DNA of 59,132 nucleotides, filler included, from Sphacelaria rigidula (lineage: Eukaryota): NCBI GenBank assembly GCA_964200075.2. It is 6 parts of 6 records of this genome, joined end to end, with 100 filler letters (N's around TTAATTAATTAA, not from the genome) between each part and the next. Parts side by side here need not be neighbours in the genome. Positions count along the whole stretch, not along the records: positions 49,362 to 59,132 come from CAXNAA020007798.1; 5 more parts are not named here. The stretch is one strand, 5' to 3'. Both the position numbers and the translations under genes were made by a program. Positions 9,668-59,132 of the stretch are shown here, piece after piece (position 1 is the first letter of the stretch; each line of letters opens with the position of its first letter). The notes under the pieces are model-generated. The model was not told the DNA's origin. It made no database searches and saw nothing but the letters and a program-made list of their open reading frames with translations.

Positions 9668-9711
9668 CTGATAAAAAAGTTGAGACGCACGAGGTCCCGG
9701 AGGGGGGGGGG

Positions 9712-9773
9712 CGTACTCATTTGTTGCTTGCCTTAGTCATTTGACCATTGACCACGCATCCCGTTCGAGACGG
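9712..9773 (-). mobile_element. Mini retro-tail (module C) of the poly(C)-associated LINE
   Basis: Matches the 3' end of LINE 55254-59070; adjacent G10 run on + strand. Confidence 0.8.
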
Positions 9774-9873
9774 NNNNNNNNNNNNNNNNNNNNNNNNNNN
9801 NNNNNNNNNNNNNNNNNTTAATTAATTAANNNNNNNNNNNNNNNNNNNNNNNNNNNNNNNNNNNNNNNNNNNN
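9774..9873. other. Artificial contig linker (N44-TTAATTAATTAA-N44); same linker at 19647-19746, 29519-29618, 39391-39490, 49262-49361
   Basis: Five identical 100-bp spacers containing a six-frame stop palindrome; flanking pieces are 9773, 9773, 9772, 9772, 9771 and 9771 bp. Confidence 0.97.
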
Positions 9874-15245: not shown

Positions 15246-15853
15246 TGCCCTCATCTGATGGGCGCACATTTGAAGCTTTTGACCAAACTGGCGTACGGGG
15301 AAAAATTTCACGCCGTCTTTGAGGTGTTGGGACTGCGAAAATCGGAAGTATCTTCATTATTTTCAGGGTTCGGACGAGCAAAATCGTGGTCCATTTCATA
15401 TGCAACATTCCTAGCGTATGATTCGTGCGGTACACTGACGAATGTAGACATTTCCTCACTCCACACCATCTGTCTGATGACAGTACAGGGGGTACGGTAT
15501 CAATCGGGCGTGCAGACAGCACCGAATCCTGGCGGCCTCATCATGATTCTTTGCCCGGTGATGGATGGAAGGCTCAACGAAACACAGCTAAGAAGCATTG
15601 AATAGGCCCCGTCATAGATACGAGGGTGTGGCTGAACGTTCCCGCTCCAACTCGCTCGACAGTGTCGGTTCAGCTTTTGTCGCTCGCGCCATGGGGCGCT
15701 TTGGCAACGACCCTTGCGGGCGCACATTGGAAACGGGCAACGTCCCCCTACAGGCAGTACACACCCTAGCGCCCGCACACTTGGGTAGAGAATTTAAATC
15801 GTACCCAATCTACCCAAACTGGGGAAGAGGATCTCAGATCGTACCCAACATAC

Positions 15854-16727
15854 CACGGTTCGGACGAATCAGAGTTCACACGGGTTGACTCCCCATGAAT
15901 ATTGAATGCGATTCATGTACAAAAAAGTCATGCGGTATGATTGAACCACCGATGGGAAAGTCGTACATTCAACGTAATACCACACGAATCACGAACTGGA
16001 CATGTCATCACTTCAAGTAGTATCAGACGAGTCAAGCGTGGAAAATATGTATGATTCGCACTTTCGGTGTGAACCATGGGTGGGAAATATGCACACTCGA
16101 GCTTGATTCATCTCGAATGGATGTAAGGAGGAGAACGTGCACGTACCATTAATTAAATGCTACATGAACGGAAATCGATGAGCATGCACGTGTGATTCAC
16201 CTCGAAGGGATGCAAGGCGGAGAACGTGTACGAATGATTCCACGGTTAGCACGAACCATCACGACTATGAATCACCAACTCCACGACTTCTTCGGCCTGA
16301 TTGCCCAAAAGGGAGAAAAAGGTTGACCGCTGGTCCAAGGGGTATCCAGGCAACTTTTGCGCCATTCCACGTGTCTCGGCTGCGTGTACCTATGCTGCAA
16401 CGCTGAAAACAAAGTCTAGGGATTGATTCGTACGAGACGAATCAATTACATTAAAATCAATTAATTTCCAGACGAATCGTTTCTTATCCGACCCTTGAAT
16501 GATGCCTGCTCCATGGATGAAAGGGGAGATACATAATTAGGAAAGACGTAACTATGATTCACACCATACGAATGGGAAGGTATGAAACCTGCACCTTTGA
16601 CGGTGTGCCGCACGAATCACGAACCCAACAAAACATGTACAAGTCACGACTTATGTACGAATCGTATGATTGATTCGTCCACATGTAAAACATAAATCAG
16701 GTCACGAATGTATTCGTCCGAACCGTG
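15854..16727. mobile_element. hAT-type MITE family E (874 bp, contains a nested copy)
   Basis: TIR CACGGTTCGGACGAAT; perfect TSD CAACATAC. Confidence 0.88.
16241..16497. mobile_element. hAT-type MITE family E (257 bp), nested in 15854-16727
   Basis: Ends CACGGTTAGCACGAA / TCCGACCCTTG; TSD AATGATTC/AATGATGC. Confidence 0.7.
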
Positions 16728-16939
16728 CAACATACCCAATCCGGTAGGGTAGTGAGGTCATAGCCAAGTGATGCACTACACCCAGGTATTGCTGAGAGTG
16801 CTTACCCAATATTTTTGTAGTATTTGAGGCCGAACCGGATCTGCCCAAAACTCAGGTAGAGTACTGAGACCATACCCAGGTGATGCTCTGTACCTAGGTA
16901 CTGCTGAGGGTGCTCACCTAAAAATTGGGTGGAGTATTT

Positions 16940-19129
16940 CAGGGGTCTACACGTTACACGTGCCACAGCGTTACACGTTACGATTTGGCCGAAACATAAC
17001 GTGAACGTTAAAAAACAATTACGTGATGAACGTAATGTTTACGTAACGTTGGAATTTCAAATGAAACGTTCACTTAGCGTTAAATTTTTCAACGTGACGT
17101 ACGTGAACGTTTCATTACCCAAACGTTGAAATCATGTCATATGAAACTTTCCATGCAACGTGTAACGGCTATTACACGTTAAACGTGCATTAGACGTTAC
17201 ACGTTACACGCAACGTTATATGTTACGTTACACGTTACATGAAACGTCATGAACACGCCACATGCAGTGGTGAATCTTCAAGTTTGCAATGAATTAAAAA
17301 ATCCTGGAAGATGGTGCTTATGGTATAGGTATGGTACTATTGCAAGAATTTCGCGCTCTCCCCACTACACGTCACAACGGCCGGCCGCACATCATAATCA
17401 TAACATCATGATTATCTCGACCACATTCAAGGCTACTTCTCATGTGTAAAGAACACGTTGTCAGAAAAGACGTTTCTCAACAGTGCGATTTACTACATGA
17501 TTCTTCAAACTAGCCTTCCTCACGTAATCGACGCGGTGTCAAAATTGGAAATGCAGTGCTCGTCGTTTTTCATGACGTGTGCAGGTATAATTTCGAATTT
17601 TGGGGCGCGCGAAATAGACGCAGCACTCTGCTGTCGTGTCGTGGTGTACGGTCCGTACTGACTGTCTGTACTACAGTTGTGATACATCGGCTGAGCAATA
17701 CATGGTGGACTGCGTGACGAAGACGATCAATAAGAACACCGCCTTGCTGTACTGACTGTAGGAGTGACGGTTGCGCTTTTTACTGCACGGTAGTACTTGA
17801 CTGAAAGGAAAGCACGGACAAGAGTACATACAACAACAGTACTGTATTGTATGCCTTGGCTGTAAACTTTTTCGTGAGATTTAGAGTAGAGCGCTGATTG
17901 AAAGTGGCTCTATTCTTTCGCTCCAACTCCGCCAATTATTCAATCCGTGTGCGCTTTTTCTCCCCTTCATCACTGGCTTGTGCTTAAAGCTAGACGTCGA
18001 TATCCTACTCAAGGATATCAAGGGCCTCAGTGGCAAGGTACTACAGGAAGCATATTGGGCCTCGTGGAGGGGCATTTCGGAACTGAAACGGGTAATTCAG
18101 TCATTGATCGCCTTTCACTCTCAATCGTATCCTCTACTCCCAGTCTCACAAAAGCCTTGTTTGTAGTGACGGCTTGGCTGCCATCATCACTACTGTCGCT
18201 GGTGATCGCGGGCAGTCAGCGTTTTGCTTCATGTCCTTCGCTCGCCAGTAGCGTGATGGCCCTTACCCCTTTCCCCCATGAGAACAAACTCGGCAGGGTC
18301 CATGACGAGTGCTGTTAGACACCCTGTGTGTAGGTTGGTTGAACAGCTATGTACCTCAGTTCATGTCTGCATGCCGCGTGTTGCAAACAGCACTCGAATG
18401 CAGTACAGACTGCCCAAGCACCCAAGCCCCGTAGACACTACAGCAGTAGGACTACTGCTTATACTGTGGTGTTGTGTGTACGATCAGTGCAATCCTGTCT
18501 CTACAAGTCTTGGGTGCATGGGCAGTCTGTACTGCATCACGAGTACTGTTCGCATCACGCTGCATGCACAGACCTGAAATGCGAGCTACAATACTGTCTG
18601 TGCAAACTACACGCAGTGTTTGTACAGCACTCGTCATCGACCCTGCCCTGTGCCGTTCTCATGGGGTAAAGAGCTACCATGATACTGGCGAGCAAAAGGA
18701 CAATGAAGTAACGTGCTGACTACCCACGAGCACCAGCGACAGCAGTGGTGATGGTAGCCAAGCCACCCATGGCTGCTGTCGTGGGCTGGAGGGTGTGTTG
18801 GCGTGCGGCGGGATTTTAAACGCGTTTTTTGATCACACAAGAAGTGGGTTATAAGAAAACGCACTGTTTTAGAGTGTTCTTCGTGCATGAGAACTAGCCG
18901 ACGAGTCACCGTCAGCGTCACGTACACGGTAACATCACGCGTTGAACGACACGTTACAACGCCTCTAACACTGGTGAATGAGTTGCGACATGCACAGAAT
19001 GAAACGCTACATTCGAACGCTACACGTGTCGAACTAACGTGATATTAGACGTTACACGTGACATTGAAACGTTTCATATTACGTTACATGTAATGAAACG
19101 TAACGTGGACGTGAACGTGTAGACCGCTG
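16940..19129. mobile_element. Non-autonomous hAT element (2.19 kb) with ACGTTAC subterminal repeats
   Basis: TIR CAGGGGTCTACACGTT / AACGTGTAGACCGCTG; TSD GAGTATTT/GAGTTTTT. Confidence 0.85.
17864..18161. mobile_element. MITE family B, nested in 16940-19129
   Basis: Colinear with 6799-7098. Confidence 0.8.
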
Positions 19130-19416
19130 GAGTTTTTGAGATCGTACACAACCTGCTCCAAATTTGGGTGAAGTATTTGAGTCTGTACCTAATCTATGGA
19201 ATCTATTCAATCTACCCAAACCTTGGGTAGAAAACATTCTCAGGTGTTACCCGAGTATTTAAAACATAACCTACCCGACCTGCCTTCAAAGAACTGACAC
19301 TCTGGACAATAGAGACAATAATAGTTCATTGCTTGAGCAATAGACATCGGGACAAATATATCGATATATATTATCGAACACGATAGATGTTGAAACACAT
19401 CTTTGATATGTATTGC

Positions 19417-19570: not shown

Positions 19571-20233
19571 ATACTGCTGTCGCGTATTCAACGAGACGGG
19601 GATAGCACAAACATATAAAATGATGCTAGGAGAGGACGGGGGGTATNNNNNNNNNNNNNNNNNNNNNNNNNNNNNNNNNNNNNNNNNNNNTTAATTAATT
19701 AANNNNNNNNNNNNNNNNNNNNNNNNNNNNNNNNNNNNNNNNNNNNTAAAAAAGAAAAAAAAAAAAAAAAAAAAAAACGACACCCATTAAAAAAGCCGGG
19801 GTGGGGGGGGGGGGGGGGGGGGGAGGCGCTCCGTGTCCAAATTTTCTCTCGACAAGCCCTTGAAAAAATAAAACAAAAAACACAAGAAAAATCATGACAA
19901 TTTTCGAAAAATTGCCCTCCGGGGCGGGAAGGGGGGGGCTCCGTGTCCGAAAATTTGATCTCTTCAGACCCTTGCACACATCTGTAATTTTCGCCTCTTC
20001 ACTACTGCTTCACTACTGGAGTGAGAACAATTCGGCGGCAGCCTCGCGCTGTCGCACTCTGTTGGCAACAAACGCAAAAATCTTGCTACAATCTTGTCAG
20101 CGAGAACACAACATTCAGCATTACCAAAAACTGTCCACATGCATTGGTACGTACGTGCGAGACGATTGGCTATCTCATTTGTGCTGACGCAGCTCAGCAA
20201 AATAAGGTGCATGATGGTACATGCCCATGCAAT

Positions 20234-23960: not shown

Positions 23961-26900
23961 GCACTTCACGGCAAAACGCGTCTACGATAGTCTACGTAAT
24001 GTTTCTGACGCGGAAAATGCGGGGAAGCGAGTGGTTGTCGGCATGTCTGGGGGGGTTGACTCGTCAGTCGCGGCGATGCTAATGAAGCAAATGGTGAGTG
24101 AGTAAGTGAGCAAGCAGAGGCTGTATTTTGTGGGTGCGCTCATGGGTACGGTCAAAATCAGGGAGGAGGTTGTATCTTGTCAGGAGTCAATGCTGGATGT
24201 TGGGAGGTGCGGGGAGGCTTGGGGATGGTTGAGAATGTGTCGCGTGCCTGACACGGTATTGGGTCCGCTATATTGGGCGTGCCAAAAACGACGCAACAGG
24301 GGGGATGATGATGTTGACGGTGCTTTTTGGTTGGCCAACGTATACCGATCGCCCCAGCGGCTCAGTTGGTTGCTTCGAAACCTTCTGACGGTTGGGACGT
24401 GGGTTCGAATCCCGGTGAAGTCACACGATCTGGGATTTTTTTTCTCACATGATACGCCCAACAGTGGAGAGCGACTATGGCGTGGGGACACATTGTCCGA
24501 CTTCACGGTCGACAAGGGAAAGGGACGACTGAACCCTCTTTTCCTCGCGATAAAGAGAAATTCGAGCACCGCAGAAGGATGGTGAAGTGCCGAAACAAAT
24601 TGAAGAACAAAAACTCCTGTGTGAGCTCGGTTGACGCACACACATATATCGAAAGATATCGATTGACGTTCAGAACAGATGGGATGACAACACAACACCG
24701 TAAGCATACCAAACTAAGGGTTTGATGTGTTTTTGCTTGCTCTCTTTTCTTGGCGGCGGCGGGGGGGGGGGGCGAACCACAACGCGACAAGGGTTATGAT
24801 GTCGTCGGTGTGTTCATGCGAAATTGGGATCGAGATGACGAAGAGGGCCAGGAGGCGTGCTCCGCGGATAGCGATCTGCAGGATGCGCGGAAGGTTGGCG
24901 AGCTCTTGGGTATCCCCGTAGAGACGGTGAGTGAGTTTTTTTTTTTGCCCAGTTTGATCACGCATTTGTCCCGGAAGAGCGTCCCGGTCGGTTTGCATGT
25001 ATTCTCATTTTTTCCTGGTTGTGCAATCTGGTTGGTTACCATAACAATAGTTCCCCCGCACCATCGTTCGTGTTTACGTGTCTCCGAGACGGTGAGTGGA
25101 ATTATTTTTCATTTTTTGCCATTTTTTTCACGCATGTTCCGGAAGAGCGTCCCGGTTTGCATGTATTCTCACTTTTTTCTGGTTGTGCGATCTGGTTGGT
25201 TTCCATAACGATAGTTCCTCCGCACCATTGTTCGTGTTTACGTGTCGTGTCAAGTTACTTCCTGTGTATTGGCTATTGGACCAGATGGTCTCTTCTCCCT
25301 CATCGGATGAACTTCAATCTCTAGGGTGTGTGCCATGACTTGGGTCGATTTAGACGATCGTGTCATTCCAGACAGCTGGGGGCGACTTGCCCCAGGGATA
25401 TCGATATCAACTACAGGCGGCTCGGAAAACCACAGTCGACGGTTGTGGATTCTATGACTGCGTTTTGTCTGAGCTTATGATGGATTGGTTGTCGTATATC
25501 GCCGGATCCGCTGGAAATCCGACCGTGGTCACTGGATAGACATACCCAAGGAAAATGAAAAACAAAAATACTGGCGATAACAAAGGAAGCTCGAGAAAGA
25601 CAAGAAATGGAGAGAGAAAGAGAGAGAGAGTAAAGTGAAAAGCAAGAAACGGCACAAGAGCAGCAAAACAAGAACTAGACAAAAGGAGAGGGAGGAGGGA
25701 AGAGTACCCGTCTGTTTTGCTTGCTTTGGTCGTTTGACCATTTGCCACGCATCCCTTTCGACACGGGGCGCGACGGAGCAAAAGGGAGGGGGAGGGGGGA
25801 GGGAGGGGCGTACTCATTTGTTGCTTGCCTTAATCGTGTGGCCATTGACCACGCATCCCTTTCGAGACGGAGCAAGGGAGAGGGGGGGGGCAGGAAAGGA
25901 AAGGAAAACGAGAAACAAATAACGCCAAGATAGACTTAGAGTACCATTATTGCTACATGCAAAAGAGGAATGGTCGACTCCTGCCGCATGGCGTCAGGTG
26001 AGGAGGCCTTTCAATATCAAACCATATATAACGAGAATGCCGGCGATACTTGTACATAATGTATTTTGACGTGTGTAGTAGCCTGCCGTGGTACAGTGAC
26101 TCGCAAGCCCCATCTTTGTCCCCTGGGGACGGTTCCTGCAGCGATCGAGCTTGAGCTTTCAGAACTCCTCAACCCTGTTGAATTCGATGAGGAGGCGTGT
26201 TTCCGAAGCTGTTGAATTTGACTTTGACTAGCCTTTGCCGATACAGCTGTCCGCATTTCTTTTGCCTTCGTCGCGCACTGTTTAGCCTCCCGCCCCCCGC
26301 CCCACCGATCTCGAACACAGACGAACTTCTCTCGAGAATACTGGACGGAAGTATTCGCCCCGTCCTTAGAAGAAATCACGCAGGTGAGGCCGAATTAGCG
26401 TGGCAAAAATTCTGATTTATTTCTGTTCGTACCGTTGTTTCAACAGAAGTCATGTGGTGGGTGTCTGACTAGTGCAGTTCTGGTGAACGTACATCGATCA
26501 CTCATACGTTGGGGGGATTGTCTAGACATGATGATGGTGTAGCAATGGGGGTGAGATGCTTTTTTCGAATTGATGGAGGCGAGCGCGGTTTCGGTAGGCC
26601 CTTCGTATCGCCTGTACTTCGCTACGTCATCCTCCAACGCCTGCTCGGACGAACTTTGCCACGTTAAAGTGGCGATCGCGCTGTCATTCGTGATGCGTTC
26701 AGTGCACAACACCTAATGGGCATAAAACTGCTGTTTAATTTTTTCCCTTCTTTCTCGTCTTGTCTTTGACCCCTCCCCGTCCTCGGGATGAGCCCGTAGC
26801 TCAAAAAAGGATCAAACAAGTGTTTCTCCCTGGGTACGTGCTAGACATTTTGGCGTTGTGAATTTCATCAGCAGGCCCGTACCTCGTCGACACTCGTCAA

Positions 26901-29175
26901 ATAAAAATCTCCTTGCCACGCTATTGCTACGCGCATCCTCACGTTCCCAACGGTAAAATTCGGAAATTTCTCGGGAAAAAAAACAACGTGTCTCCCGGGA
27001 TCAGAACCGTCGACCTTCCGCCCTCACCAGTTCACGATATAATGTTTTCATCTTTACCACCGCGCCGCGGTGCTGTGCGTGGTGAAAGCTACATGCGACT
27101 GCTCCCTGTCCTTGCGCGCCTCCTCCTATCCTTTATTACAGTGTAGTCATCACGTTGTCTGGCTGCACTCTTTTCGGAATAACTGCACGGTTCGGACGAA
27201 TCATCGCCGCTTCGAATCACTAAATGTACAATTTTTCGGAGATATGTACGGATAAAACCGTGGTTTTACGGATTGAAGACTGTAGCGTCAGAACAAAAAA
27301 TGAACTTGAAAAAATGTGGGACACAAAAAAGTAACCGGTACGGGACTCGATCCGCGCACGTTCCGCTTCGAACGGATTCATATTACGGCTCCTGCTACGG
27401 ATTTACAGCGTAATCCGTGGCGAAATTTTGACGGATTTTAAACCGCGGACTTTTCCTTCAAATGGCTCCTCAGCGAACATGCTGGTTCGATTCCTAGTCA
27501 TCATCAGCTGTGTTATTTCCCCTTCTTTGCGTCAAACTTCTTTTTCTGTTGAATTCAGAGCAAAAAGAAGAAAAAAAAACGTGATTTCCTCCGTACACAC
27601 CCCTGCAACTTTTAAGGCGTGATTCCTCGAGAAAGAGAAAAACGTTGACCGCTGCGGTCAAGAAGATCCCCATGCAATTTTTGCGCCATTTCACGTGCCC
27701 GGGCCGAGTGTACTTGGGTTGCAGCGCTGCAGTCAAAGCCTGAGGATTGATTCGTCCGGTACGACTCATTCATACTAAAATCAAGTAATTACCAGACGAA
27801 CCATTTGATTCGTCCGACCCTTGAATAACTGCGCACCTCTCAGAGCACATGTCGTGCGTAGCTGCATGAGCGAGATTTTGTTGTTGCTCGAGAAAACGCA
27901 GACACTGACCACATCAGACATACAGCAGTCTACCTTCTGCCCCCATCTTTTGTTGGACGGTACCTCACCCGGTCCCGTCGCCCCGCCACATCCACCTGAC
28001 AGGGACGAACTCCCAATTTCGACGTGTGGTGCAACCGTTTCATCAAATTCGACGCGTTCAGGAAGTACGCCATGGATGTCCTTCGAGCAGACCTTGTCGC
28101 TACCGGTAAGAGTTTTATCTCTGCAACATCCGCCATATCTAGGAGACTCCTGGTCATCTTGTGCAGCAAGCCATGGTTGACTGCAATCCCGAAAGCTCGT
28201 TTTATACACGGTAAGGAAGTAGGTTATGCGTGCCGTGAGCCATATGCAGCCGGCCTTGTGGCCACTCGTGCATATTTCCAAGTAGTACCGTTAGGCGTGA
28301 CTACAGTTTGATGTCGTGAGGGGGGGAAAGTTTCGAAAATCGCCCCTTCATGACTAATCACGATGTTTCTGCAGTGAGGGTAGCTTCCAATCGAGACTGC
28401 ACTACTGGTTCATGACTATTTGTCGTGCTCTTAAAGCCCCTCACGTGCTGCCAGAGCATCAGCACCGCAAAGCATGTACCTCTACGGGTATCACGCATGA
28501 GCTGAAGAAAGGTGACGCTTCTTCCCTATCTGGTACTGTGTTACTGAAGATCATAAGAAGCCTTTTTCACGAGAACGAAAACATTGCGTGCCGTTGCTGT
28601 TAATCTCGAAATCTCTCCCATCTCCGCGCAAAGGAGATGATCGTACTACGTAGTATTTGCATGGTGAGACATACACTCATGAGGTAGTGTATAAGTCGTG
28701 GCTGTCTCTGAAAGTTGCGTTATCAGAAAATGAAGCAACCCATTGTAGACTGTCATCCATATGCGAAATAACCAGCGCGCTTCGGGCCGAATAATGTTAG
28801 CAGGATGCAGCTCACCCTTCGTGCGACTCGGCGAACACACCACAGCGCTTCGCGCTCGGTGATTGATGGCGAGCCTGGTCCGGCAAAAATCCAGCGTGCT
28901 CCGTCCCGACTTTGTAGGGATGCGAGGTCAACGGCCAAATGACCACGGCATGCAAGATCATGAGTAACCCCCCCCCACCCCCCCCCCACTGTGGGTACAT
29001 TCGTGCATGATCCACCCGTGCCGCCCTTGTGGGTAATTTCACTACAGGACACTACGCCAGGATTGGACCTGGGCCCTCGGGTGGATGGGAAACACCGGTT
29101 TTGCTGTCGGGGGAGGATACAGACAAGGATCAGTCCTATTTCCTTTGCGCAGTGCCCAGCTCGGCGCTTGCTAAC
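23961..29175 (+). CDS. mnmA: tRNA-specific 2-thiouridylase MnmA/TRMU, partial; exons 23961-24093, 24792-24926, 26321-26383, 28003-28105, 29048-29175
   Basis: Spliced protein KRVVVGMSGGVDSSVAAMLMKQM|GYDVVGVFMRNWD..CSADSDLQDARKV..LGIP..|TNFSREYWTEVF..|GRTPNFDVWCNRFIKF..ATG|HYAR..DTDKDQSYFL: PP-loop SGGVDS, CN.FIKF, ATGHYA and KDQSYFL motifs; all introns GT-AG and phase-consistent. First exon uncertain; the gene continues past the contig end. Confidence 0.95.
24351..24705 (+). mobile_element. tRNA-derived SINE family 1 in an mnmA intron
   Basis: GCCCCAGCGGCTCAGTTGG..CCTTCTGA..GGTTCGAATCCC head plus shared body. Confidence 0.85.
24921..25245 (+). repeat. ~165-bp tandem duplication including the 5' splice site
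   Basis: GAGACG|GTGAGT at 24921 repeated at 25086, followed by near-identical intron sequence. Confidence 0.85.
25480..25700 (-). mobile_element. RTE-like LINE 3' UTR fragment
   Basis: Reverse complement: pyrimidine-rich tract, then TTGGGTATGTCTATCCAGTGACCACGG...CGACAACCAATCC. Confidence 0.55.
25704..25874 (-). mobile_element. Two tandem module-C mini retro-tails (25704-25780, 25809-25874)
   Basis: Both match the 3' end of LINE 55254-59070; separated and flanked by GGGAG-rich tracts. Confidence 0.8.
26975..27072 (-). mobile_element. Second tRNA-like Pol III head (SINE family 2 or tRNA pseudogene)
   Basis: Reverse complement GGCGCGGTGGTAA (A-box-like) ... GGTTCTGATCCC (B-box-like), then T8. 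Confidence 0.4.
27186..27823. mobile_element. hAT-type MITE family E (638 bp) in an mnmA intron
   Basis: CACGGTTCGGACGAATC / GATTCGTCCGACCCTTG; perfect TSD AATAACTG. Confidence 0.88.
28625..28967 (+). mobile_element. Non-coding retroelement family D (~350 bp) with C-tract tail
   Basis: Homologous to 43881-44225, 49030-49261, 49362-49437, 29460-29510 and 59083-59132; 3' end resembles module C; C-run at 28968-28988. Confidence 0.75.
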
Positions 29176-29382
29176 GTAAGTTGTGAAGCGAAAGATATGT
29201 CCATTGATACGAGCACATTACGATAATGTCCATGTTGTACCTAGTGAGAAAGTCAGACTTGCTGGAAGTAACGTAGGTGACGTCGAAAACGGTTATCATC
29301 CACTCACCTCCTCCCATTCCCCCCGCACGCACGCACGCGCGCCCCCCTGACGATCCTGGAGCCATGCTGCGATAGGGAGGGG

Positions 29383-29441
29383 CGTACTCATTTTTTGCTT
29401 GCCTCAGCCGTTTGACCATTGGCCACCCATCCCTTTCGAGA
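29383..29441 (-). mobile_element. Module-C mini retro-tail
   Basis: Matches the LINE 3' end; GGGAGGGG flank. Confidence 0.75.
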
Positions 29442-29674
29442 TTGACCCCCCCCCTATCTCAGCCTGGTCCGGCGAGAACCCGGCGTGCTCCGTCCCGGCT
29501 TTGTAGGGGCGGACCCCCNNNNNNNNNNNNNNNNNNNNNNNNNNNNNNNNNNNNNNNNNNNNTTAATTAATTAANNNNNNNNNNNNNNNNNNNNNNNNNN
29601 NNNNNNNNNNNNNNNNNNGGAAGCCACAAGATTTTTGCGGTCGGCGGTTGATGGCGTGGGTCTCAAATGCAACG

Positions 29675-41407: not shown

Positions 41408-44400
41408 CTAGCGAGATTCTTTGAAGTCGACCTCCTTGTCCATGGGCCATTCCACGGTGTACTCCAGAGGGATCTGGATCTCGCCTTGGGGGGCTACTTT
41501 CACCACCCACGCCTGACACATATCGGAGACGTTGCAGGACACAGGTGGGCACGATTAATCAGTGACAAACCACGGGCTGGAATGTTGCAATCAGCTAATG
41601 TGAGATAATCAATCAACGAAATCAATCAATGCCACGGCACGTGACATATATTTATGCTCCTGCAGACCAGGCGCAGCAGCTGCGACTGCCTCATGCCGTG
41701 TAACATGAGCTCTAAACCTCGCGGATCCCGAAGACTTCAAACGGTGGCATTCTCGGAAACGATTTTGCCTATGGACCTTTTCTGTACATACGCGACCACA
41801 CATGAGAAATCGAGTAGCGCAATTGTTTGACATGCGCTGCGAAGAACAAAAGAAGCCGGTCCTTCAGTTTTGTCAATGTTTCTGCACGTCTCTGCGTACC
41901 ATACAGTGCGACAACACACACATTCAAGCGTGGTAAAAAGTGCATGTATTCGTGGTCGGATAAACTGGCATCGCGGCCTGCCTCTGTTTGTTGTTGGCTC
42001 GAGTTGATTTTTCCTCGTGGTCGTACTTCTGTGCGCGCGTCCGACCAGGAATACAGAATCAGTGGTTCCTCACAAGCACTACACCTCTTACGTTTGGAGA
42101 TGTTCACGAGGATCAAATGTAAATGACACAAAACACCTGCATGATTTCAACAACGAAACGCATGCGTTTTTATCCACGTAAAGCCAAACGTTCACCAGCA
42201 TGACCTCCCAAACCTCCCTGTATCCCATACACTCTACAACAGCATTTGCTGCGAACTTCCTGCGCTCACCAGGTGGTTCGACGAGTTCTTGCTCACACTC
42301 AGCACGCCCGTCTTCACCGGACCAGCAACAACTGGGAGGCCGCTGCTGTGTACCGGAGATTTCTCTAGCGCTTCGGCAACGAGTTGCTCGTCGTTGATGG
42401 CATCGGACTCTTGGACAATCGCCGGAGCGGGCTGCTGTAGCGATACCTGTAGTATTGAGGGGTTGACAGGTCAGATTTTATGCATACCTTGTTTGAATGG
42501 GCGCTGAGAAATCAGCGACTATGGTAGCTACTGTGTTGAAACGTAATCGACGTTATTGCGCCGATCTGCTCTCGCGCATTGTCAATGATTTCAACAGCAT
42601 CTAGGATTCGCTGTTTGATTTCCCACGATTAGCGATAGCCTGTTGGGTGCGAGCTGACCTCGTGTTCGTGCACATGTATGTTTGCGAGCGGATTCAAGTC
42701 TGTGAGGCAACTCAATGCGATAAACGACGAGGTATTTCGGAGTTGATTTTTCAACAATGTATTCGACTGTCTCGACTAGGTTAAGGTGGCAGCCGGCGAG
42801 GTCGTGGGGATATATCTCCGAATACCATGTTCCTTTTTGTTTTTTCTTAGAGCGTATTTCAGATTCGTTTTTCTTGGGTACGTCTATCATGAGATCACGG
42901 CTAGACCCCTGGGGGTCAGTTCAAGTGCGACAATCAATAAAAAAAAACATGGGATGTGAGGGCGAGGCTGGCGCTCTTTGCTCCCCCCCCACTTCGGTGC
43001 TCCGTCTCGAAAGGGATGCGTGGTCAATGGTCAAACGACTAAGGCAAGCAACAAATGAGTACGCCCCCCCCCCCCACTTCGGGCAGTTTTTTTTCCTTCA
43101 CTTCTAACGTGATAAGCACCAGGGCATCTAATCTTCGAAGTTTTTCAATTACCTTCCGCCAACTATGGGTTCATGGGTGAGGCCCCACTGGGCGATCCAG
43201 TCTGAGGTTACATCAAATCGATAGGTATACCGTAGTGTCTGCACGCTGAAAATTGCCCGCCGGTGCTATAAAACCCTAGAGAATTGTAGAAATATGTGCT
43301 ATCACCATCCGTTACATCCTGCATGGAGTTTGAGGAGTGTAGATGGATATTGGGGGGGGGGACGCCGAGGCGTGCCTTCCAGTGCCCTCGCTAGAAGACG
43401 AACTTTCACCGTGCTCCGAGTCTACAACATACATGGTTCGACCCGTCAATGCTCAGGAACTGCTACATGGGCTCAGGCACCGCCATCTCCTCTACAGTCG
43501 CTTCCAACTTCTAATACCATCGACGATGTACGATGTAAAATAATCCAGAAAGCAGGGACTAATCACAACAGTTGAGCATCTGACGAACACCTTTTGATTC
43601 AGTAGATGGTTCTCTTGTGAAGTACTTGGAGAATGACAGAAACGTGCAGGATTGGTCACAGGTTTTGTTCAAGTAGCAGTCATCGCGGTACAATAGCACA
43701 CCAGTACAATACGCACCTTGATTACATCATCGGCCGAGCGCGGACTGGCGTCCACGACGACGCAAGTGACGGGCACCCTCTTGCTGTTCGAAATAGATGT
43801 GCTGCATTTATGTGTTCATTCGAGGATGGAAGTGGGCATGAGGATTGGCGAGGAGGGGCGGGGGGGGGAAGGGGAGGGGGTTACTCATGGTTTTGCATGC
43901 CGAAGTCACATGACCACTGAACTCACATCCCCACCAAGCCGGGACGGAACATGTCGAGTTTCGCCGGATCAGGCTCGCAATCAGTCACCAAGCGCGAAGC
44001 GCCGTGATATGTCCGACGAGTCGCACGAAGGGTGTGAGCAGCATCCTACCGAGACTTTTCGACCCGAAGCGTACTGATTATCTTCCATATGGATGTCAGC
44101 CTCCAGTGCGTTGCTGCATTTTCTGGTATCTTCACCTCCAGAGACAACCACGGGTTATACTGTCGCATGGGTGTCTCACCACATTGAAACACTACGTTGT
44201 ATTATCATTTCCTTCGGTTCAGATTCTCCAGCCCTCGCCCAATATGATGTAAGTCGATCACCATCATGGACACCACTAAAAACGCGAGCGCAAGAAATCC
44301 CGGGGTAATTTCGTTGCCTAGCTTACGCAGGAGCGGCGTGTTCTACAACGTCGTTGCCAACCGACGCCAACCCTCAAAAGGGGTGGGTTGGCGAGATGGA

Positions 44401-48694: not shown

Positions 48695-49029
48695 CTTCAG
48701 GAATGACAAGAAGGCATGACAAAGCAGGTTGTTTGCGTGAAAGGTGATGCATACAGGAAAAAGAGCAATTCGATAGGGGCGAGAAAGCATCGTCATTATT
48801 CTGGTAGTATTCAAGTCACGCGTTACGCCTTACCAACGCAGCATAACATTCGCCCCTAGATTTAGCCGCACGCTTGTCGTCCGATATGCACGAATTGCGA
48901 GGCCTCCCTCTCCGCCTAAAAAAACGAAGCACCTCATTTGAGGGGTATCATTCATATGCAAAACAATTCGTACGCTTCGGGACAAACAATCATACCAGGA
49001 TGCAGACCCCTCCTTATGCTACTCGCCGT

Positions 49030-49261
49030 GTAATCCGGCATGCTTTGTCCCGGCTATGTAGGGATGCGAGGCCAACCGTGTCATGACTACAGCTTGCAAG
49101 ATCATGGGTACACCCTCCGACCCCCCCCCCCCGCCCTTCGGACACCCGTGAGGCAGTGTACAAGCCATGGCTGTCTCTGGAAGTGGCGATACCACAGAAT
49201 AAAGCAACTCATTGTTGGCTGTCATCCAAAGGCAAGATACTCAGTAGGCTTCGGACCGAAC
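49030..49261 (+). mobile_element. Two tandem family-D copies separated by a C-run
   Basis: Tail ...GATCATGGGTAC, C-tract 49112-49137, then D body GACACCCGTGAGGCAGTGTAC... Confidence 0.7.
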
Positions 49262-51429: not shown

Positions 51430-54400
51430 AGTGTGACTCCTCGTCCAATTCTCACGCAACAGACATCGGCAAACTCCCACCGAGCGTGAACTTGTAGATG
51501 GGGCGAGCAGTAACATCTGACACCGTTAGACGTGAGCATCCCATGCATTTTCTCTGTCATAGAGAGAAGCAGGACAAACCCGAAGATACCGCCGGTTAAG
51601 TTGCTTCGATCTCCAAGGACGTACTCCTGAGATCCGACGGGATGGTGATCCCATGATCGATTCGACAACCCTAGACACGAGGGTGGTTCAAGGATGTGCC
51701 ATCTGCTGAGTCCGAAGAGGCATGAAATGCAGGGGAAAGTGCAAGGTTGACGGTACGGACAGAGTCGAAAGGTAGCCTTGCATGGCGTTTGCGTGCGGCG
51801 TGAAAGAGTCTCAAGAAAGTTATTCAAGCTGGGTTGAATAGGTACATGGTTGTGTATGCCAAGAATCTAAAGGCGTACGCAAGAATTGGGGATATGGGAG
51901 GGTGGTACGGACATCTGATAGGAGGATGGAGACCAGCGGGAAGCAATCTGGAGAGCGAACCGTATATCAAGGACGAGGACGGAAACTGCTACGGTGCAAG
52001 AGTCCAGTCTGTGAGAGATGGAGGCTATATTTTTCCACTTGTGCTGAATGAATCATCAGCAACTATAGATATATCCGGCATCAAAAGTATCACGCAACTG
52101 TGTTACTTGGAGGTCAGCCAAATCTAAATGAAAGAGAGAAGGTACTATGAGTCATGGCTGATGACGAAGCGATGGGGGTGGATAGGCTTACTGCTGAGCT
52201 CAAGCATGTATTGAATACGGATGGGGGCAGAGAGAGAGAGAGGGAGAGAGAGAGAGAGAGAGAGGAGGGCGCACAGAGAAAGAGGGCGCGTGCGCGAGAG
52301 AGGGGGGATTCGAGCGGCCAATTTTTTCAACAAATCTAGGGGGACCTTCAGGAACCCTGTACCACGTCTATATCATCATATTTTCTGTTTGGATTTCTGG
52401 CGAGATGCTGTAGGAGTGGAAGGACGCGACTATCAAAGTGCTACACAAGAAGGATACGACCGAGTGTGATAACTATGGGGGCACCATCCTCGTGACGTCT
52501 GCTGGGAACGTTTCCTCGAAATCGTAGCCAACGGGCTCGGTACTTTCCGCGAGGACGAAGGGATTTTCTCGGAAGATCAGTGCGGAGTTATTTGTCCGTC
52601 GTTCGCCAACTGCAGTATTTAGTTGGGATAGGGGGACAAAATCCCACTGAACATTTGCTTCATCCACCTGGAGAAGACGTACGACTCCAGAGACCGCACG
52701 CTCTTGTAGGAAGTGCGATCCCGTTTCGGAGTCCCGCCGCGGAAGATCAAAACCATCCGTATAATTCACGATGGCGTGCGAGCTCGCATATTGCTGGATG
52801 ATGGCGGACTACTAGGGCGTTTCCAAGTCCGTTGGGGACTCAAGAAAAAATACGTTTCGTCCCCGCTGCTGCTCAACATCTTCGGCGCAGCTTTGTTAGA
52901 TGTAATCTCACTGCGTTCCATGGCAAGCGGAGCTATCATCTCCTCAGCCTTAGCGTCCCTAGTTGGTGCGCCGGACATCAAGAATGATAACTCCACCGTA
53001 GATACGCCGCTGAAGAAGGTACGGCTCGCGGTCCGGGAAATGCTGTACGCGGATGACGCAAGCATAGCCTCGAGAACGGACTTTCTACAATGCAAGCTAC
53101 GATATTGGTGATCCGTGAAGAGTTCGAAATATAAGGTAGCGGAGAACAAGACAGTGTCCATGCGCCTGCGTTGTACCCAATTCCTAGAGACCGGACTGCA
53201 CATCAATGCGGTAGGCCAGCGGAAAAAGGAGACGGCCGAGTATGTCACGGGCATTTATATCAAACCCAAGCGCTGCATCGGCGCTGCGCAGACACGCCTC
53301 CGAAGAGGTAGTCCCCAACTCTACGATCGGCCCACCGGCCGGCTCTGTATGAAGATAAGGCTGTAGCGATGTATCAAGCGACGCTACAAGGATGCGCTAC
53401 ATGGACACTGCGCCCAGAGGACTTCGAAAGCCTACGAACCGCCTACCACAAGCGTGTACGCGCCTAGGTGGCTTCCATGGGAAGGATCCAGTGAGCACAA
53501 GACTCATACAGAGCTGTGCTCGAGATGACCTAGTACAAGCGTATCGAGGCAACCATCTTCCGCAAGCGTGTTGTTTCCGGGCGGTGTGCCGCACAAGCAC
53601 CGGGAAAACCGCCTCCAGGGGATCTTGCGTGCCTCGGGGGGGGGTATCCCACGCAAGGGCGAACGAAGGAATCTGGTCTGCCCACGGCTTGGAGATCAAC
53701 AACTCACATGTTTGAGTCACTGCCGTGAAGAACATGAGCAAATGGCACGTGTGGGTCGAGAAGCGGGCGGAGAGTTTCGAGGCAGCGTGGCGACGCGAAG
53801 GCCTACACCAATCCGGGGTACATCACGAGCAAGATCTTGTCGCGTTGAGAGCCGCCAGCAGGAGCTGGTATAACAAGAGGAACAGCAGCACGCGAGGAAT
53901 CCAAGATGGAAATGGTTGAGAGAGTGGCCCGTGTTGCCCCCGACAAGGGATCAGCGGGAGGGGTGGGGGTATCACTGAAACTGGTACAGATGGGTCTTAT
54001 TTTATTGGTTGTCAACTTCAGCGATGTTCGCACGCTATGTTCCTGTATATGTTCTACGTTGTTTATGAGGCAATTTCCTTCCTTATTTTCCCGATATTCC
54101 ACTATATTAGTCAATCTTCTCCATTTTCTCCGTTCTCTTCTCCTCCTCCTCCTCCTCCTCCTCCTCCTCCTCCTCCTCCTTTCATCTGTTGTGTTCTGTT
54201 TTGTTTCGTTCTGCTCTGTTGTTGCTGCTGCGGTCGTTTTTGTTCTCCGAATGTACAGTACCCGTGTCCAAATACTGCAGTCCCTAGATAGTTTAATCGC
54301 CAGCTGCTTTTTCACGGCCTTGTTCGTTCTTGTTTTGTTTCTCTCTTGTCTCAAATTTCGTGCGCCCCCCTTACCACACCATGCGGATTCTACCGTTGCT

Positions 54401-54565: not shown

Positions 54566-55253
54566 ACACATCATCAATCACATGACAGATGAGACGACAA
54601 CACACACACATGATGATAGCGCAAACCTGCATCACCCCTCGCTCGCTGTCCCGCTCCTCACCCCAGAGCCATAGGGAAGGACGACCGAGCTCGGGGAGTC
54701 TCATGCAACAGGTATGTCGCCGGATACATCTGCCGTCGCCGTTCCCGCCAGCGCTGGCCGGTCTTGTGCACCGTCGCGTTGCTCAATTGTGGCGACGGCG
54801 ACGCCCCCGATGCAACCGCGGGTGGCTAGTTTTGAGGCGGCCTATAGCGGTCTACCCTCAGGCCCAGGCTTTAGTTACCCCGCTGTGACCACCGGTGACA
54901 CCTCGGACAGTCCATCCGAACAGCGCGGGTCTGTGGTTGCTGCAACACCTGGCGTGGGTGCCGTGAGTGAGGGCCCAGATTGACTTGTCCAGAGATCGTG
55001 CGCCGTAGCGCCTACAGGCCGGCGAAGTGGGAGGAAATGGCTGTTGGGGCGCGTATCGTGTGGGATAGGTTGGTAGAACCCGCCCGGAAGTCTGCGGCGG
55101 CGGTGGTGGTACCAGGCGAACGAGGGTGCAGGAGGGCGACGGTGGTGATGGCAGAGGCAACGTAATGCACCGGTGTTGTTTGGCTGCGGACTGGGGGAGG
55201 GCGACTCGACCGTGGAAGGTAGCAGCGGTACTGGGCGAGGAGGGAGGGGCGGG

Positions 55254-58200
55254 CGTACTCATTTGTTGCTTGCCTTAGTCGTTTGACCATTGACCACGCA
55301 TCCCTTGCGACACGAAGCACCGTTCCTACTCCTTATGGAGACACCTCCAACATTCCGGCGCTCGTTACATGCATTACACAAAAAACCTCTAGCATGTCTT
55401 GTCTGTGGTCATCATCATCACCATCTACCCTTCCTGTTTCGGCGTCTGTGGCCGTCATCTATCTTCTAGTGTAGCCATCATTTTCTCCCTACCGTCTAGT
55501 GCATCAAACGATTTCATGCAACCTTCGTTTACTTCACGCATTTCCCCCTCTAGCACGTCCTGTTCAATGCATGGTTCACATTCCGCCACTCTATGAGTTC
55601 CAAGGGCAGGTTGGGTAGGATATGCCCAATACTCAGTATTTTTTATAAATCATACTTAGTACCCAAAATCTGGGTAAAGTATTGAGGTCATACCCAAGTG
55701 ATACTCAATACTCAAGTATTACGGAGAGAGCTTACCCAATGTTCGGTAGAGTATTTGAGGTCGTACTCAATCTACCCAAGATTTAGGTAGAGTTTGAAAA
55801 TCGTACCCAACCCAGGTATTGCTAAGAGTGCTTACCCAATATTTGGGAGAGTATTCGAGGTCACACTCAATCTACCCAGAATTTGGGTAGAATATTTGAA
55901 GTCGTACCCAATCTACCCAAAATTTGGGTAGAGTATATGAGGCTGGGCCCAATATACCAATACGTTGGGCATAACTTTAGTATTCAACCTCGTACCCAAG
56001 ATACCCAAACCGCCTGTATAACACGGACCACCGGGGCCTGTTTTGGGATCAGGTCTATCACTCCTGACCCCGTCGCGCCTTTCTCTGTTGTTTCCCCTCG
56101 CGACTTTTGCGGTGTTTCCACATCTTCCACCGTTTCCACCGCTGGGCCTCCCGCAGAGGGGTTAGATGTGCGGCCCGTGGCGTCGCTCATTTTTACACTA
56201 CCTACCCGACTACCCGCCGTCTGCTCGATTACCCACTGATGATGAGTAGCGCTTTGTACTGCAACTGATATCGAAGAGGATGCGAAGTATGAAGTATGAA
56301 GTATGGGTATGGGTATGGGTATGGGTATGTACTGCCGGGGGTGAGGCAGGTAGGTTCATGCACCTGCACGCTATTTTCATTTTTTGATGGCCACCATCTG
56401 CTCATAATAATTGTAGCCTTTGACGTGAGATCACTCATCTCATTGATGGCCACCGGTCGCCCATATATTCGACATAGTCTGTGAAGTGACGTCACGAAGT
56501 CGCCCACGGTCACGGTTACTCATCATATCCAAGGGATACTCTATACCTAAGTATTACTGAGATGACTTACCCAAAATTAGGTGGAGTATTTGAGATAATA
56601 CTCAATCTACCCATTTTGGGGGTAGAGTATTGAGGTCATACCCAAGTGATACTCTATACCCAGGTATTGCGGAGAGTGCTTACCCAAAATTTAGAAGAGT
56701 ATTTGAGGTCGTACTCAATCTACCCAAATTCGGGTGAAGTATTCGAGGCCGTACCCAATCTACCCGAAACTTGGATAGAGTATTCGAGGCCGTACCCACT
56801 TTGCCCAAACGTTGGGTAGAGTAAATACCCGGGTATTTTACTCTAGTATTCAAACTTACATACCCTACCCGACCTGTCCTTGATGACTTATACTTTCTAT
56901 AGCTTTGCCACAGGGGCAAGTCTGTGCATCTACTTCCTCCTCCACTGGACTACTGGTATCTCTCTTTCTTCTTCCTGGCGGGTCCAGGTCCCCCACCCGA
57001 AATCGCCGTTTCGAATTTGTCGCGGAGCCCATTGGGCCATGCAAATATGATTTCATTGCTGTCCCCTCTCTCAACCCCCCGTATATCGCCAGGTGCTCTT
57101 CATCTCTTTTCCGTCTGAGCACTCATTTTTCCCTTACTTCTATCATGCCTCTTACTTTTGTCTTCTACCCCGCGACTTCACCTATGGACGGCAATTCATC
57201 TTGTTTCCCTCTTATCCCCTTCCCATACTTTCTCGACTTCTCCATCCCACCTTCTTCCAGCCTGCCCGTTCGTGATTGTCTTCCATGCAGCTCTATCAAC
57301 TGTGGCTGGCAATCTCTTTTTTATCATGTTCTTTACGCTATATTGACATCTCACTTTTCTCATATCTCTGTTGAATCCAAGTAGGTACAATCCCAATTCT
57401 TCTCTCAATGCTGTATTTTTCGTCGTTTTCGAGCACCCACGTATTTTCTTAGCTGCTGCCCTTTGTACTGTTTCCAACTTCCTTCATCAACTTCGCATTT
57501 TCTCCCCATGCTTCTCCTGCATATTCCAGCTTCGATTTAGTCACGTCCATCCTGCCTATCTGTGCCTAACCCTTTTCTATCACTTTATTTATGTGTGCAT
57601 CTCCAGAACGCTTTTTTGAAATCTCGACGCCAGAGTATGTATACTGGTTGGTATACGATCGACAGTTCCTCTTCTTCCCACTTCCATTTGAGCTCTACCA
57701 TATTTTGCCTATCTTCGTTGCATACAAGTACCGCTCATTTAGTGCCTTCTCTACTTGCTTCTGCAATCCTTCCGGTGTTTCTGATGTCCCCATGAAATCA
57801 TCCGCGAACATCGATCCTGATACCGTATCTTCCCCCACGCTGGCTCCTTGCTTCGCTGCTTCTATTGCTCTCATCAGGTCTTTGATAAATACTTGAATAG
57901 AGTGGGTGATCAATCATTGTGAAACTCCTTGTAAAATAACAAGATATTTCGATAGTTCTCCGTCTAACACAATAGCGCTTTTCGCACATTTTGTTATCTT
58001 CTTCACCATTCTCCATATTTGGTCCTCAGATCCCAGTTTCCCACAACTTTGTCCACAGCCAATTTCTCATACTGAATCATAGGCCTCCTGTACGTCCAGA
58101 AAGAAACAGTGCTTTGTCAGCCCAGCGTCTTTCCTACCTTGTGTAATCTCACCTAACGTGTACATGGTGTACGCAACTACGGTTTGGTCTAGAACCTGCT

Positions 58201-59070
58201 TGCCCCTCGCTGATTTTGTTTATTCTAGTATCGTCGCCACTCTATCATTCACAATCTTACCGAACATTTTCCCTACGGTGCTCGGTAGCGCTATCCCTCC
58301 ATAATTTCCTGGGTCAGCCTTGGCTCCTTCCTTGAAAAGGTTGAATACTACTCCTTCTCCCCACCTCTTGGTTGTGTACTCGTTGTCCCATATCCAGTTA
58401 TACAGTGTAACCATCGTGGTAATCATTCCCTCTCCACCGTACTTCAGAAATGCATTACCTGTTTCGTCTGCCCCTGCTGCCTTTCTGTTCTTGAGTTTAG
58501 CTACTCACTGGTATTCCTTGTCTCAGAATCCTACTCCCTTCATGCCCCTGTTGTTGAGGTTTTGTCTCATCCGCTTTTTCCTGTCCATACGTACTCTTCA
58601 ACTTCGCATTCTATTCCCGCCTTCTCTTTCTCCCACGACTCTTGGATCCCCACGATATCTAGGTCGGGGTTACTTACTTGTTCGGCTATCTCTATTATTT
58701 TGCGCCCGTCTGACGAATCCACACACGTTCCGCGATCGTATGCTCAACTTCCTTTTCGAATCATAATCCACTCACATTGTGTCCACTGTTCTCTCTCGGT
58801 CGTTTTACTTCTATTTTCCCTCGCTTGATTTTTCTTCCCATTTCCGGTTGGTTTTTCTCGATTTGCTTCGGGCCGCTGTGTCCCCTCCCCTTTCCCTTCC
58901 GAGCACTTACTTGTTCCTGCTTCTCCTTTCCTCCGTTTACCCGCGAACTACGCCTTAGGCTCGCTGTTCCATTGGCTATGCATACTCTCCATCCTACCCT
59001 TCTAATCCATGCCGACACCTTACTTGTCTATTTCCTTCCCCATTCCTTGCTCGCGCTCTGTTGTAGCGAG
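55254..59070 (-). mobile_element. Second LINE (5'-truncated, decayed RT plus CCHC C-terminus) ending in module C and a C-rich tract
   Basis: KEGAKADPGNYGGIALPSTVGKMF, MFADDF, C-terminal CPCGKAIES..H(I/R)VAEC split by a MITE; reads directly into GGTGCTTCG..GAGTACG-CCCGCCCC. Confidence 0.85.
55601..56882. mobile_element. hAT-type element family F (1.28 kb) inserted in the LINE
   Basis: TIR CAAGGGCAGGTTGGGTAGG / CCTACCCGACCTGTCCTTG; TSD ATGAGTTC/ATGACTTA (6/8); ~37-bp TACCCAA subterminal repeats. Confidence 0.85.
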
Positions 59071-59082
59071 CAGGGGAGGGGG

Positions 59083-59132
59083 TGTACTCATGATCATGTA
59101 TGCCATAGTCATCAGACCATTGACCTCGCATC
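59083..59132 (-). mobile_element. Family D 3' tail abutting the LINE 5' end
   Basis: GTACTCATGATC..CCATTGACCTCGCATC with GGGGAGGGGG flank. Confidence 0.7.

Follow-up and report, generated by a model that had tools for sequence, protein, structure and literature searches.

The closest described systems to the retrotransposon family considered here are long interspersed nuclear elements (LINEs) of the brown alga Ectocarpus. In Supplementary Material 3 of PMC12477816, RTEX-1_Ec32 is entered as 'single EN-RT ORF; (C)n 3'', that is, one open reading frame (ORF) for endonuclease (EN) and reverse transcriptase (RT) with a C-run at the 3′ end, and its target-site duplication (TSD) is given as 'C-rich'; RTEX-2_Ec32 is entered as '(C)n termini/TSD', again with a 'C-rich' TSD. 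Two non-autonomous elements of the same table, RTEX-N1_Ec32 and RTEX-N2_Ec32, have their last 60–100 bp in common with the autonomous LINE and 'C-rich' TSDs, and RTEX-N1_Ec32, with a shared 3′ end of 60 bp, 'can be present in tandem'. (C)n appears in no further LINE or Penelope-like element row of the table, and in the main text the term 'C-rich' is absent, the passages shown there for RTE-X, target sites and microsatellites being silent on tail and target (PMC12477816). Among the papers listed for poly-C, C-rich or RTEX tails, no C-tailed LINE turned up besides those of Ectocarpus. Here we analyse 59,132 nucleotides of Sphacelaria rigidula DNA (assembly GCA_964200075.2; hereafter the window), made up of six pieces of ~9.77 kb with N44-TTAATTAATTAA-N44 linkers between them, which hold one long LINE copy, copy A, and further short copies of its 3′ end. 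We consider it likely that this LINE, with a single ORF, an apurinic/apyrimidinic endonuclease (APE) and a C-tail, inserts by target-primed reverse transcription (TPRT) at C-runs and thereby targets its own tails.

Homopolymer priming is familiar from mammalian L1, where the nick leaves a T-run that pairs with poly(A) and the TSDs, of ~15 bp, tend to begin with A's; the L1 tail is made by polyadenylation and its 3′ recognition is 'relaxed'. Nested or tandem arrays that arise when an element enters its own tail or a simple repeat are known from Zepp of Chlorella and from Waldo, Mino and Kibi of the R1 clade. These differ from the Sphacelaria LINE in clade and in repeat ((A)n, (ACAY)n, (AC)n and (TC)n), and we know of no Zepp- or R1-type LINE that targets C/G homopolymers. 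The RTE clade of LINEs, reportedly treated by Malik and Eickbush in 1998, is like the Sphacelaria LINE in its one APE-RT ORF, very short 3′ untranslated region (UTR), simple-repeat tail and extreme 5′ truncation, which leaves copies resembling short interspersed nuclear elements (SINEs). RTE-clade tails are tri- or hexanucleotide repeats, whereas the Sphacelaria tail is a C homopolymer, and the Sphacelaria LINE also differs from the RTE clade in general by a CCHC motif near its C-terminus and an extension at its N-terminus.

C-tails of the LINE and its short copies

Copy A ends in ...AATGAGTACG, with a C-rich tract after it; the sense strand of 55254–55322 reads ...GGGATGCGTGGTCAATGGTCAAACGACTAAGGCAAGCAACAAATGAGTACG, then CCCGCCCCTCCCTCC. 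This ~66-nt end, here called the module, is present in the window in six A-type copies, with 3′ ends at 9712, 25704, 25809, 29383, 43063 and 55254, and in five B-type copies (Table 1; copy 43063 is named by the 3′ end of its module). A 46-nt pattern allowing up to three mismatches matches at 9712, 25809, 43018 and 55254, with 0.00 matches expected by chance, and AATGAGTAC is found five times against 0.39 expected, a count reached by none of 100 shuffles. Searches with blastn add a diverged copy at 25688–25765 and the second, B-type subfamily (28916–28983, 49063–49115 and 59066–59132, and further 43860–44214 and 29461–29508). The two subfamilies have only the ~70-nt end in common, the B module being diverged and carrying a 1-nt frame difference, and no coding similarity to LINE proteins was detected in the ~400-nt B-type element. 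To judge from sequence, B-type elements would stand to the LINE in the usual relation of a non-autonomous partner. Like RTEX-N1/N2_Ec32 as tabulated, they share only the 3′ end with an autonomous LINE; the heads differ, being unrelated or unknown.

A C-rich tract follows every window copy that retains its 3′ end. Fourteen 3′ ends could be scored, ten in the window and four in outside contigs (L001–L004), and in 13 of them C makes up 7 or more of the first 10 flanking bases, compared with 873 of 117,184 window 10-mers (0.74%); three B-type flanks in this tally were scored by eye. The sole exception, 25704, with 6 C and 4 T in its flank, has the appearance of a decayed tail. Young-looking copies carry pure runs (C10, C12, C8, C10 and C13), and in older copies the C-runs are broken by T. 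An A-run follows none of the 14 ends, so these are not L1-like poly(A) tails, and the proposal of an initial sequence-only reading of the window, that a C-run takes the place of poly(A), is borne out. Among the outside copies, L001–L003 are metagenome contigs matched by a 22-nt tail pattern, with 400-nt flanks, and L004 is a 5.3-kb contig found by a 21-nt pattern; a scan of viral contigs found no copy of the LINE end.

That reading had also seen the same 3′ end elsewhere in the window, each copy standing alone before a C-rich tract. The end does recur with such a tract, except that 25704 closes with GGGTAC followed by TCTTCCC rather than AATGAGTACG. Copy 43063 is indeed solo, but 25704 and 25809 stand in tandem, with a C9 tract before the pair, a 23-nt C-rich tract between the two modules and TCTTCCCTCC... 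after them. At 9712 the point cannot be judged, because a piece boundary cuts the copy and an N run starts at 9774.

Amplification of the module

Logan contigs of four runs (X1, X3, X4 and X6) were aligned to 54950–55600 at a likeness of at least 80%, which placed 65,771, 25,648, 51,186 and 2,224 contigs, respectively; one or two cover the unique flank of this interval. The summed word depth of these contigs, which is not a copy number and serves as an order of magnitude only, rises in X1 from ~66 in the flank to 2.3e7 over 55258–55301, and drops to 4–7e6 just upstream of the module and 1.4–3.4e6 at 55478–55565. Within the module, part of the drop arises as an artefact of alignment, from three mismatches that the window copy has at 55307–55315. 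The data point to copies numbering tens of thousands or more, the majority not exceeding the module in length, in agreement with the 11 copies per 58.7 kb of window. RTE-X is the most abundant LINE group of Ectocarpus, with 16,418 copies (PMC12477816); in Sphacelaria, tail-only copies of ~66 nt dominate and contig counts lie far above that figure.

The loose ends of the contigs show what adjoins these copies. In all four runs, the best-supported 3′-side classes have a consensus of ~10–22 G's (plus strand) directly at the element (641, 423 and 812 contigs in X1; 246, 357, 181 and 662 in X3; 568, 453 and 844 in X4; 35, 55, 32 and 93 in X6). On the 5′ side, 223 contigs of X1 complete the module (TCGAGACGGAGCA) and then show one C and a G-run, and 152 contigs of X3 pass directly into a G-run. 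With homopolymer at both kinds of loose end, many short copies thus lie between two sense-strand C-runs. Joints that 'go back' 49–71 nt, which are head-to-tail modules, are likewise present in all four runs. Of the six window pieces, three stop within a module copy (9773, 29518 and 59132), which suggests assembly or sampling breaks at the module repeat.

Intact relatives and family placement

Copy A itself is degraded. Compared by tblastn with P0002 (1360 amino acids), it is 5′-truncated, beginning near residue 59, and is without residues ~247–678, and with them the linker and the larger part of the endonuclease; residues 59–246 fall at 59069–58511, 679–1254 at 58504–56883 and 1253–1360 at 55598–55262. 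Its ORF fragments contain numerous stops and frameshifts, and Pfam gave no match at E ≤ 0.01 on the single broken pieces. The endonuclease had been called missing, which is correct for most of the domain in this copy; however, ~75 of its residues, including LDIVGIQESWEK, survive at 58511–58743, and the family encodes an APE.

Full-length coding sequence was recovered outside the window. The frame of L004 stays open for 1382 codons and closes with ...KASNK-TGA-GTACG-C13, and P0002 has Exo_endo_phos at residues 170–392 (E 3e-12; the endonuclease by Pfam spans 170–414) and RVT_1 at 740–989 (E 1e-30). Both P0002 and P0013 carry Exo_endo_phos, Exo_endo_phos_2 and RVT_1 domains and a C-terminal CPCG...H....C (CCHC) motif. 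No other sense ORF of at least 100 amino acids occurs in the 998 nt upstream of the L004 frame; the 5′ end of the element lies outside this contig, which is also without a TSD.

In L001, L002 and L004 one frame reads through the whole module and ends ...GAPSRKGCVVNGQMTKASNK-TGA. The 'tail' of 70 nt in the sequence-only reading is a discrete recurrent end, as that reading held, but it is coding sequence, namely the 22 codons with which the single ORF ends, and the stop TGA lies inside AATGAGTACG. Only GTACG (5 nt) separates the TGA from (C)n in these three contigs and in the window copies. Because the ORF is intact in L004 and P0002 and the stop lies five bases before the C-run, the family is autonomous, bears an APE endonuclease and has essentially no 3′ UTR. 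Gene calls that read past the stop (P0007, P0008 and P0023) continue as Pro/Ser-rich strings, which would be the expected product of C-rich DNA.

The end of the frame is also conserved in relatives. C(V/E)VNG is encoded by TGCG(T/A)GGTCAA(T/C)GG in both window subfamilies, the B-type module encoding CEVNG as P0033 and P0053 do, and G-C/R-V/E-V-N-G stands about 6–10 residues before the C-terminus in relatives of ~40% identity (P0026, P0029, P0033, P0037, P0045–P0049 and P0053). The very end of the ORF seems more conserved than a protein tail normally would be, and the conservation of C(V/E)VNG down to ~40% identity hints at a constraint at the nucleotide level.

Ectocarpus sp. and Sphacelaria rigidula supply the nearest named proteins, which makes this a brown-algal family, and named matches outside brown algae are generic only ('jockey', 'endonuclease-reverse transcriptase'). 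Ectocarpus proteins show 59–78% identity to the family; for the gene models P0025, P0039 and P0014 of Ectocarpus sp. the range is 51–78%. P0014 shares the ...VANGQMTTASNK C-terminus, and P0025 and P0039 end in the related ...VVNGLTAK. The family has in common with RTE-X a single ORF in which an N-terminal APE precedes the RT, with no separate ORF1 (P0002 and L004), and a minimal 3′ UTR that closes with a simple repeat other than poly(A) (L001, L002, L004 and window copies). The (C)n 3′ end (13 of 14 tails) and the C-rich TSDs of 43063 and copy A match RTEX-1/2_Ec32 in particular, which are also alike in brown-algal host and single EN-RT ORF and differ in species and sequence family, the likeness being one of table description and not of alignment. 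The family most likely belongs to the RTE-X group, by architecture, tail, host and Ectocarpus protein similarity rather than by phylogeny.

Some observations on the relatives stand apart. L004 has GTG, not ATG, where the metagenomic gene call P0002 begins, and its reverse complement holds an inverted, diverged module copy at ~440–520, about 500 nt upstream of the LINE ORF. P0004 and L004 are filed under bacterial metagenome-assembled genomes (a Parasphingorhabdus genome and an 'uncultured bacterium' bin), probably through algal contamination of the bins.

Table 1. Features of the LINE family in the window, with the evidence for each.
Feature	Position	Strand	Evidence
LINE copy A	55254..59069	minus	tblastn of P0002 (1360 aa) against the window; ORF fragments
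Probable 5′ TSD of copy A, CCCCTCCCCTGCTCG	59067..59081	minus	13 of 15 positions as in the 3′ copy, counted by eye
N-terminal region and first ~75 residues of the APE endonuclease (...LDIVGIQESWEK...)	58511..59069	minus	tblastn; Pfam on P0002
Reverse-transcriptase region, degraded	57476..58504	minus	51% identity over 379 aa to P0002 679–1056
C-terminal region as far as the CCHC motif (CPCGKAIES..H)	56883..57230	minus	ORF fragments, tblastn
Final ~108 codons of the ORF; stop TGA at 55259–55261	55262..55598	minus	tblastn; frame of L001/L002/L004
3′ module of ~66–69 nt: last 22 codons, TGA, GTACG	55254..55322	minus	pattern match, blastn
C-rich tail (CCCG), then probable 3′ TSD CCCCTCCCTCCTCG (55236–55249)	55236..55253	minus	direct reading
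Solo A-type module (42998–43063) with C12 (43064–43075) and TSDs	42983..43082	plus	sequence reading
A-type module, 5′ end cut by piece boundary; C10 tail 9702–9711	9702..9773	minus	pattern match
Two head-to-tail A-type modules (25809–25875, 25705–25785)	25686..25890	minus	sequence reading
A-type module, ~8 nt shorter at the 5′ end; tail CCCCTCCC; 5′ side adjoins G9 (sense)	29375..29441	minus	sequence reading
B-type non-coding element (~360–400 nt); end ...CATGAGTAA, then C9-A-C10	28631..28987	plus	blastn
B-type element; end ...CATGAGTAA, then CCCCCTCCCCTTCCCCCCCCC	43860..44214	minus	blastn
B-type element with internal deletion; end GGGTACA, then CCCTCCGA-C12-GCCC	48921..49136	plus	blastn
5′-truncated B-type copy from 29461, cut by piece end; C9 starts 15 nt upstream of the 5′ junction	29446..29518	plus	blastn
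B-type copy cut by the window end; C-rich tail CCCCCTCCCC (59073–59082)	59073..59132	minus	blastn

Target sites

Copy 43063 is flanked by an exact 15-bp TSD, CCCCCCCCACTTCGG, at 42983–42997 and 43068–43082, with four extra C's at 43064–43067. Because C8 stands on the 5′ side and unique sequence is duplicated exactly, the C-run was in the target before insertion, as the sequence-only reading had concluded for this copy. In copy A, the TSD pair CCCCTCCCCTGCTCG (5′) and CCCCTCCCTCCTCG (3′) agrees in 13 of 15 positions and again has the C-run first; its 5′ member is the C-rich tail of an upstream B-type copy. At four of the nine 5′ junctions that could be assessed (43063, 25809, copy A and the B-type copy at 29461), a C-run begins 15–16 nt upstream of the element. 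Runs of C5 or longer start at 0.107% of window positions, which gives a post hoc binomial P of ~3e-9 for four of nine. For the B-type copies 28631 and 44214, no TSDs were found.

A proposed model of insertion primed by G-runs

From the anatomy, C-tails, C-first TSDs, abundance and tandem joints described above, we infer the nick position, the priming by a G-run, the RNA's 3′ terminus and the role of the module in RT recognition as follows. The element RNA would carry, directly after the stop and five bases, a C-run in the place of the L1 poly(A), templated from the tail of its own master copy. The last ~66 nt of the ORF would act as a 3′ recognition module, also used by the non-autonomous B-type elements. 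Integration would proceed by TPRT. A nick in the bottom strand would fall at the border of a G-run, seen as a C-run in the sense strand of the element, and the freed G-run would pair with the C-tail of the RNA and prime the cDNA. A top-strand cut ~15 bp downstream would then yield a TSD that starts with the C-run. Extreme 5′ truncation in most insertions would leave nothing of the element but the ~66-nt module, set between two C-runs. Since the tails of earlier copies are the commonest C-runs of the genome, new copies would often insert behind old ones and form head-to-tail arrays; copy A within a B-type tail, the tandem 25704/25809 and the 'go back' joints of all four runs would be instances of such self-targeting. 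Priming on the G-strand of C-homopolymers by a C-tailed RNA, as first proposed for this window, is supported as the best reading by the C-tails, the C-first TSDs and the 5′ C-runs.

The preference for C-runs may lie in the nick specificity of the endonuclease or merely in the need for a G-run to anneal with the C-tail, between which the data do not separate. A module shared between the LINE and its partners suggests 'stringent' 3′ recognition in the sense of PMC3747384. Like L1, the Sphacelaria LINE would be primed by a homopolymer, with G for T and C for A; it differs in its clade, in a C-run that would be templated and in a specific 3′ module common to its partners.

Weighing the alternatives

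Several points weigh against this model. The distance of 15–16 nt was picked after inspection of the data, five of the nine 5′ junctions have no C-run there, and one of these (29383) adjoins a G-run. TSDs could be read on both sides of two copies only, one pair being imperfect, and no empty site was seen for any copy. The fold of the module is no more stable than that of shuffled sequence (z = 0.28), so there is no structural support for a hairpin bound by RT, and the RNA 3′ end was not observed, as contigs cannot show RNA ends. Random 5′ truncation does not account for the short copies whose 5′ ends lie at TGCTCC, and the RTE-X placement leans on a supplementary table for another species (PMC12477816).

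The five junctions are what would be expected if (C)n were a templated simple-repeat tail only and insertion were not aimed at C-runs, the C-rich 'TSDs' then reflecting ambiguity between tail and flank and the litter of old tails. Families of RTE type for which no target preference is known do have simple-repeat tails other than A-runs, namely (CAA)n for RTE-1/2 of Ectocarpus (PMC12477816) and (TTG)n for plant RTE (PMC3747384), and at about one module per 5–6 kb of window C-runs would often serve as targets merely by chance. Against untargeted insertion, the TSD of 43063 combines a 5′ C8 with an exact duplication of unique sequence, four of nine junctions keep a fixed distance to runs that start at only 0.11% of positions, and hundreds of contigs agree on a homopolymer as their 5′-flank consensus. 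We therefore regard such a tail-only explanation as rather unlikely. The clustering at TGCTCC would fit a separate SINE-like retroposon, in which the ~66-nt units come from a small RNA of their own that starts at TGCTCC and is mobilised in trans by the LINE. Three of the four A-type short copies with an intact 5′ end begin within a few bases of TGCTCC (29383 begins 8 nt later), the best-supported 5′ loose-end classes of X1 and X3 stop there, and the summed depth is ~3- to 5-fold lower immediately upstream of the module, although mismatches at 55307–55315 make that drop partly an artefact of alignment. Short non-autonomous partners are also on record in Ectocarpus, such as RTEX-N2 of 188 bp (PMC12477816). 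The 66-nt copies nevertheless have no tRNA, 5S or 7SL head with a Pol III promoter, for which there is no room (ARAGORN found 0 genes), Rfam gave no family at gathering score and, up to E ≤ 10, no match to the module, and the entire unit is identical to the coding end of the LINE. An independent small retroposon is on these grounds improbable. The clustering possibly reflects microhomology (CGG at the 43063 junction), a fragment protected in the ribonucleoprotein or a discrete small RNA.

The tandem joints of the four runs and of 25704/25809, together with the tabulated remark that an Ectocarpus relative 'can be present in tandem' (PMC12477816), could also be read as a satellite-like repeat in which units of module and C-run spread by unequal exchange or slippage rather than retroposition. 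Dispersed solo copies with exact TSDs (43063), copies on both strands in unrelated flanks and the continuity of the unit with an intact ORF in long copies speak so strongly against this that we give it very little credence.

Further features of the window

Copy A is split by a foreign non-autonomous DNA transposon of ~1.28 kb (55601–56882) nested in its ORF. The terminal inverted repeats of this transposon, CAAGGGCAGGTTGGGTAGG and CAAGGACAGGTCGGGTAGG, agree at 17 of 20 positions in the best register, and it looks hAT-like from the 8-bp repeat that flanks it (ATGAGTTC and ATGACTTA, 6 of 8 matching). Inside it are two arrays of ~100-nt tandem repeats (55672–55969 and 56523–56816), to which repeats at 15781–15855, 16743–16943 and 19130–19286 are related, and a (GTATGG)n / (GAAGTAT)n microsatellite at 56285–56325. 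An unrelated RT fragment at 52366–53183 (+), with 24–40% identity to distant LINE proteins such as P0124, belongs to a different LINE family.

A short repeat at 19795–19850 and 19920–19960 (+) consists of CCGGGG and a G-run (G21 and G8, at 19803 and 19931), then GCTCCGTGTCC(A/G)AAATT; these repeats start like the 5′ end of the module, the remainder is unlike it, and a 30-nt A-run (19747–19777) lies just upstream. Fragments of host genes for a pseudouridine synthase (PF00849, E 1e-14; 5246–6626, +) and the HUP domain of a tRNA methyltransferase (PF03054, E 1e-08; 24726–25205, +) have module copies within a few kb. A ribozyme, tRNA or known-RNA origin of the discrete 66-nt unit received no support (Rfam 0, tRNAs 0, fold z = 0.28); the sole Rfam match near the module, an irrelevant long non-coding RNA with E = 8.8, lies beside it.

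Significance

The C-tail and the targeting of C-runs are known from Ectocarpus relatives and are not new. The sequence-only reading knew of no such specificity in stramenopiles, a claim to novelty that fails because RTEX-1/2_Ec32 are already described with '(C)n 3'' and a 'C-rich' TSD (PMC12477816). The property is on record there only as a supplementary-table note, and a mechanistic or genome-wide account would be new. What is unusual here is the scale of amplification and the discrete 66-nt copies between C-runs; the geometry of the ~15-bp C-first TSD, the self-targeting of tails and the conservation of C(V/E)VNG are of further interest.

If the model holds, homopolymer-complementarity priming in TPRT is not restricted to A/T, and the family offers a natural contrast to L1 for the co-evolution of tail, primer and endonuclease specificity. 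It would account for much of the C/G-homopolymer content of the Sphacelaria rigidula genome and may account for breaks in short-read assemblies, as at the ends of half of the window pieces, and its 66-nt signature should be useful to annotators of brown-algal genomes. We put forward, more tentatively and as a possibility we do not favour over its negation, that the 66-nt end of the ORF together with its C-run is a self-sufficient retroposition unit, recognised by the LINE, primed by G-homopolymers and preferentially re-entering its own tails, which in this alga has produced tens of thousands of C/G homopolymers and tandem arrays or more. If that were true, the family would be a main architect of homopolymer content, assembly breaks and possible G-quadruplex (G4) and i-motif sites across brown-algal genomes.

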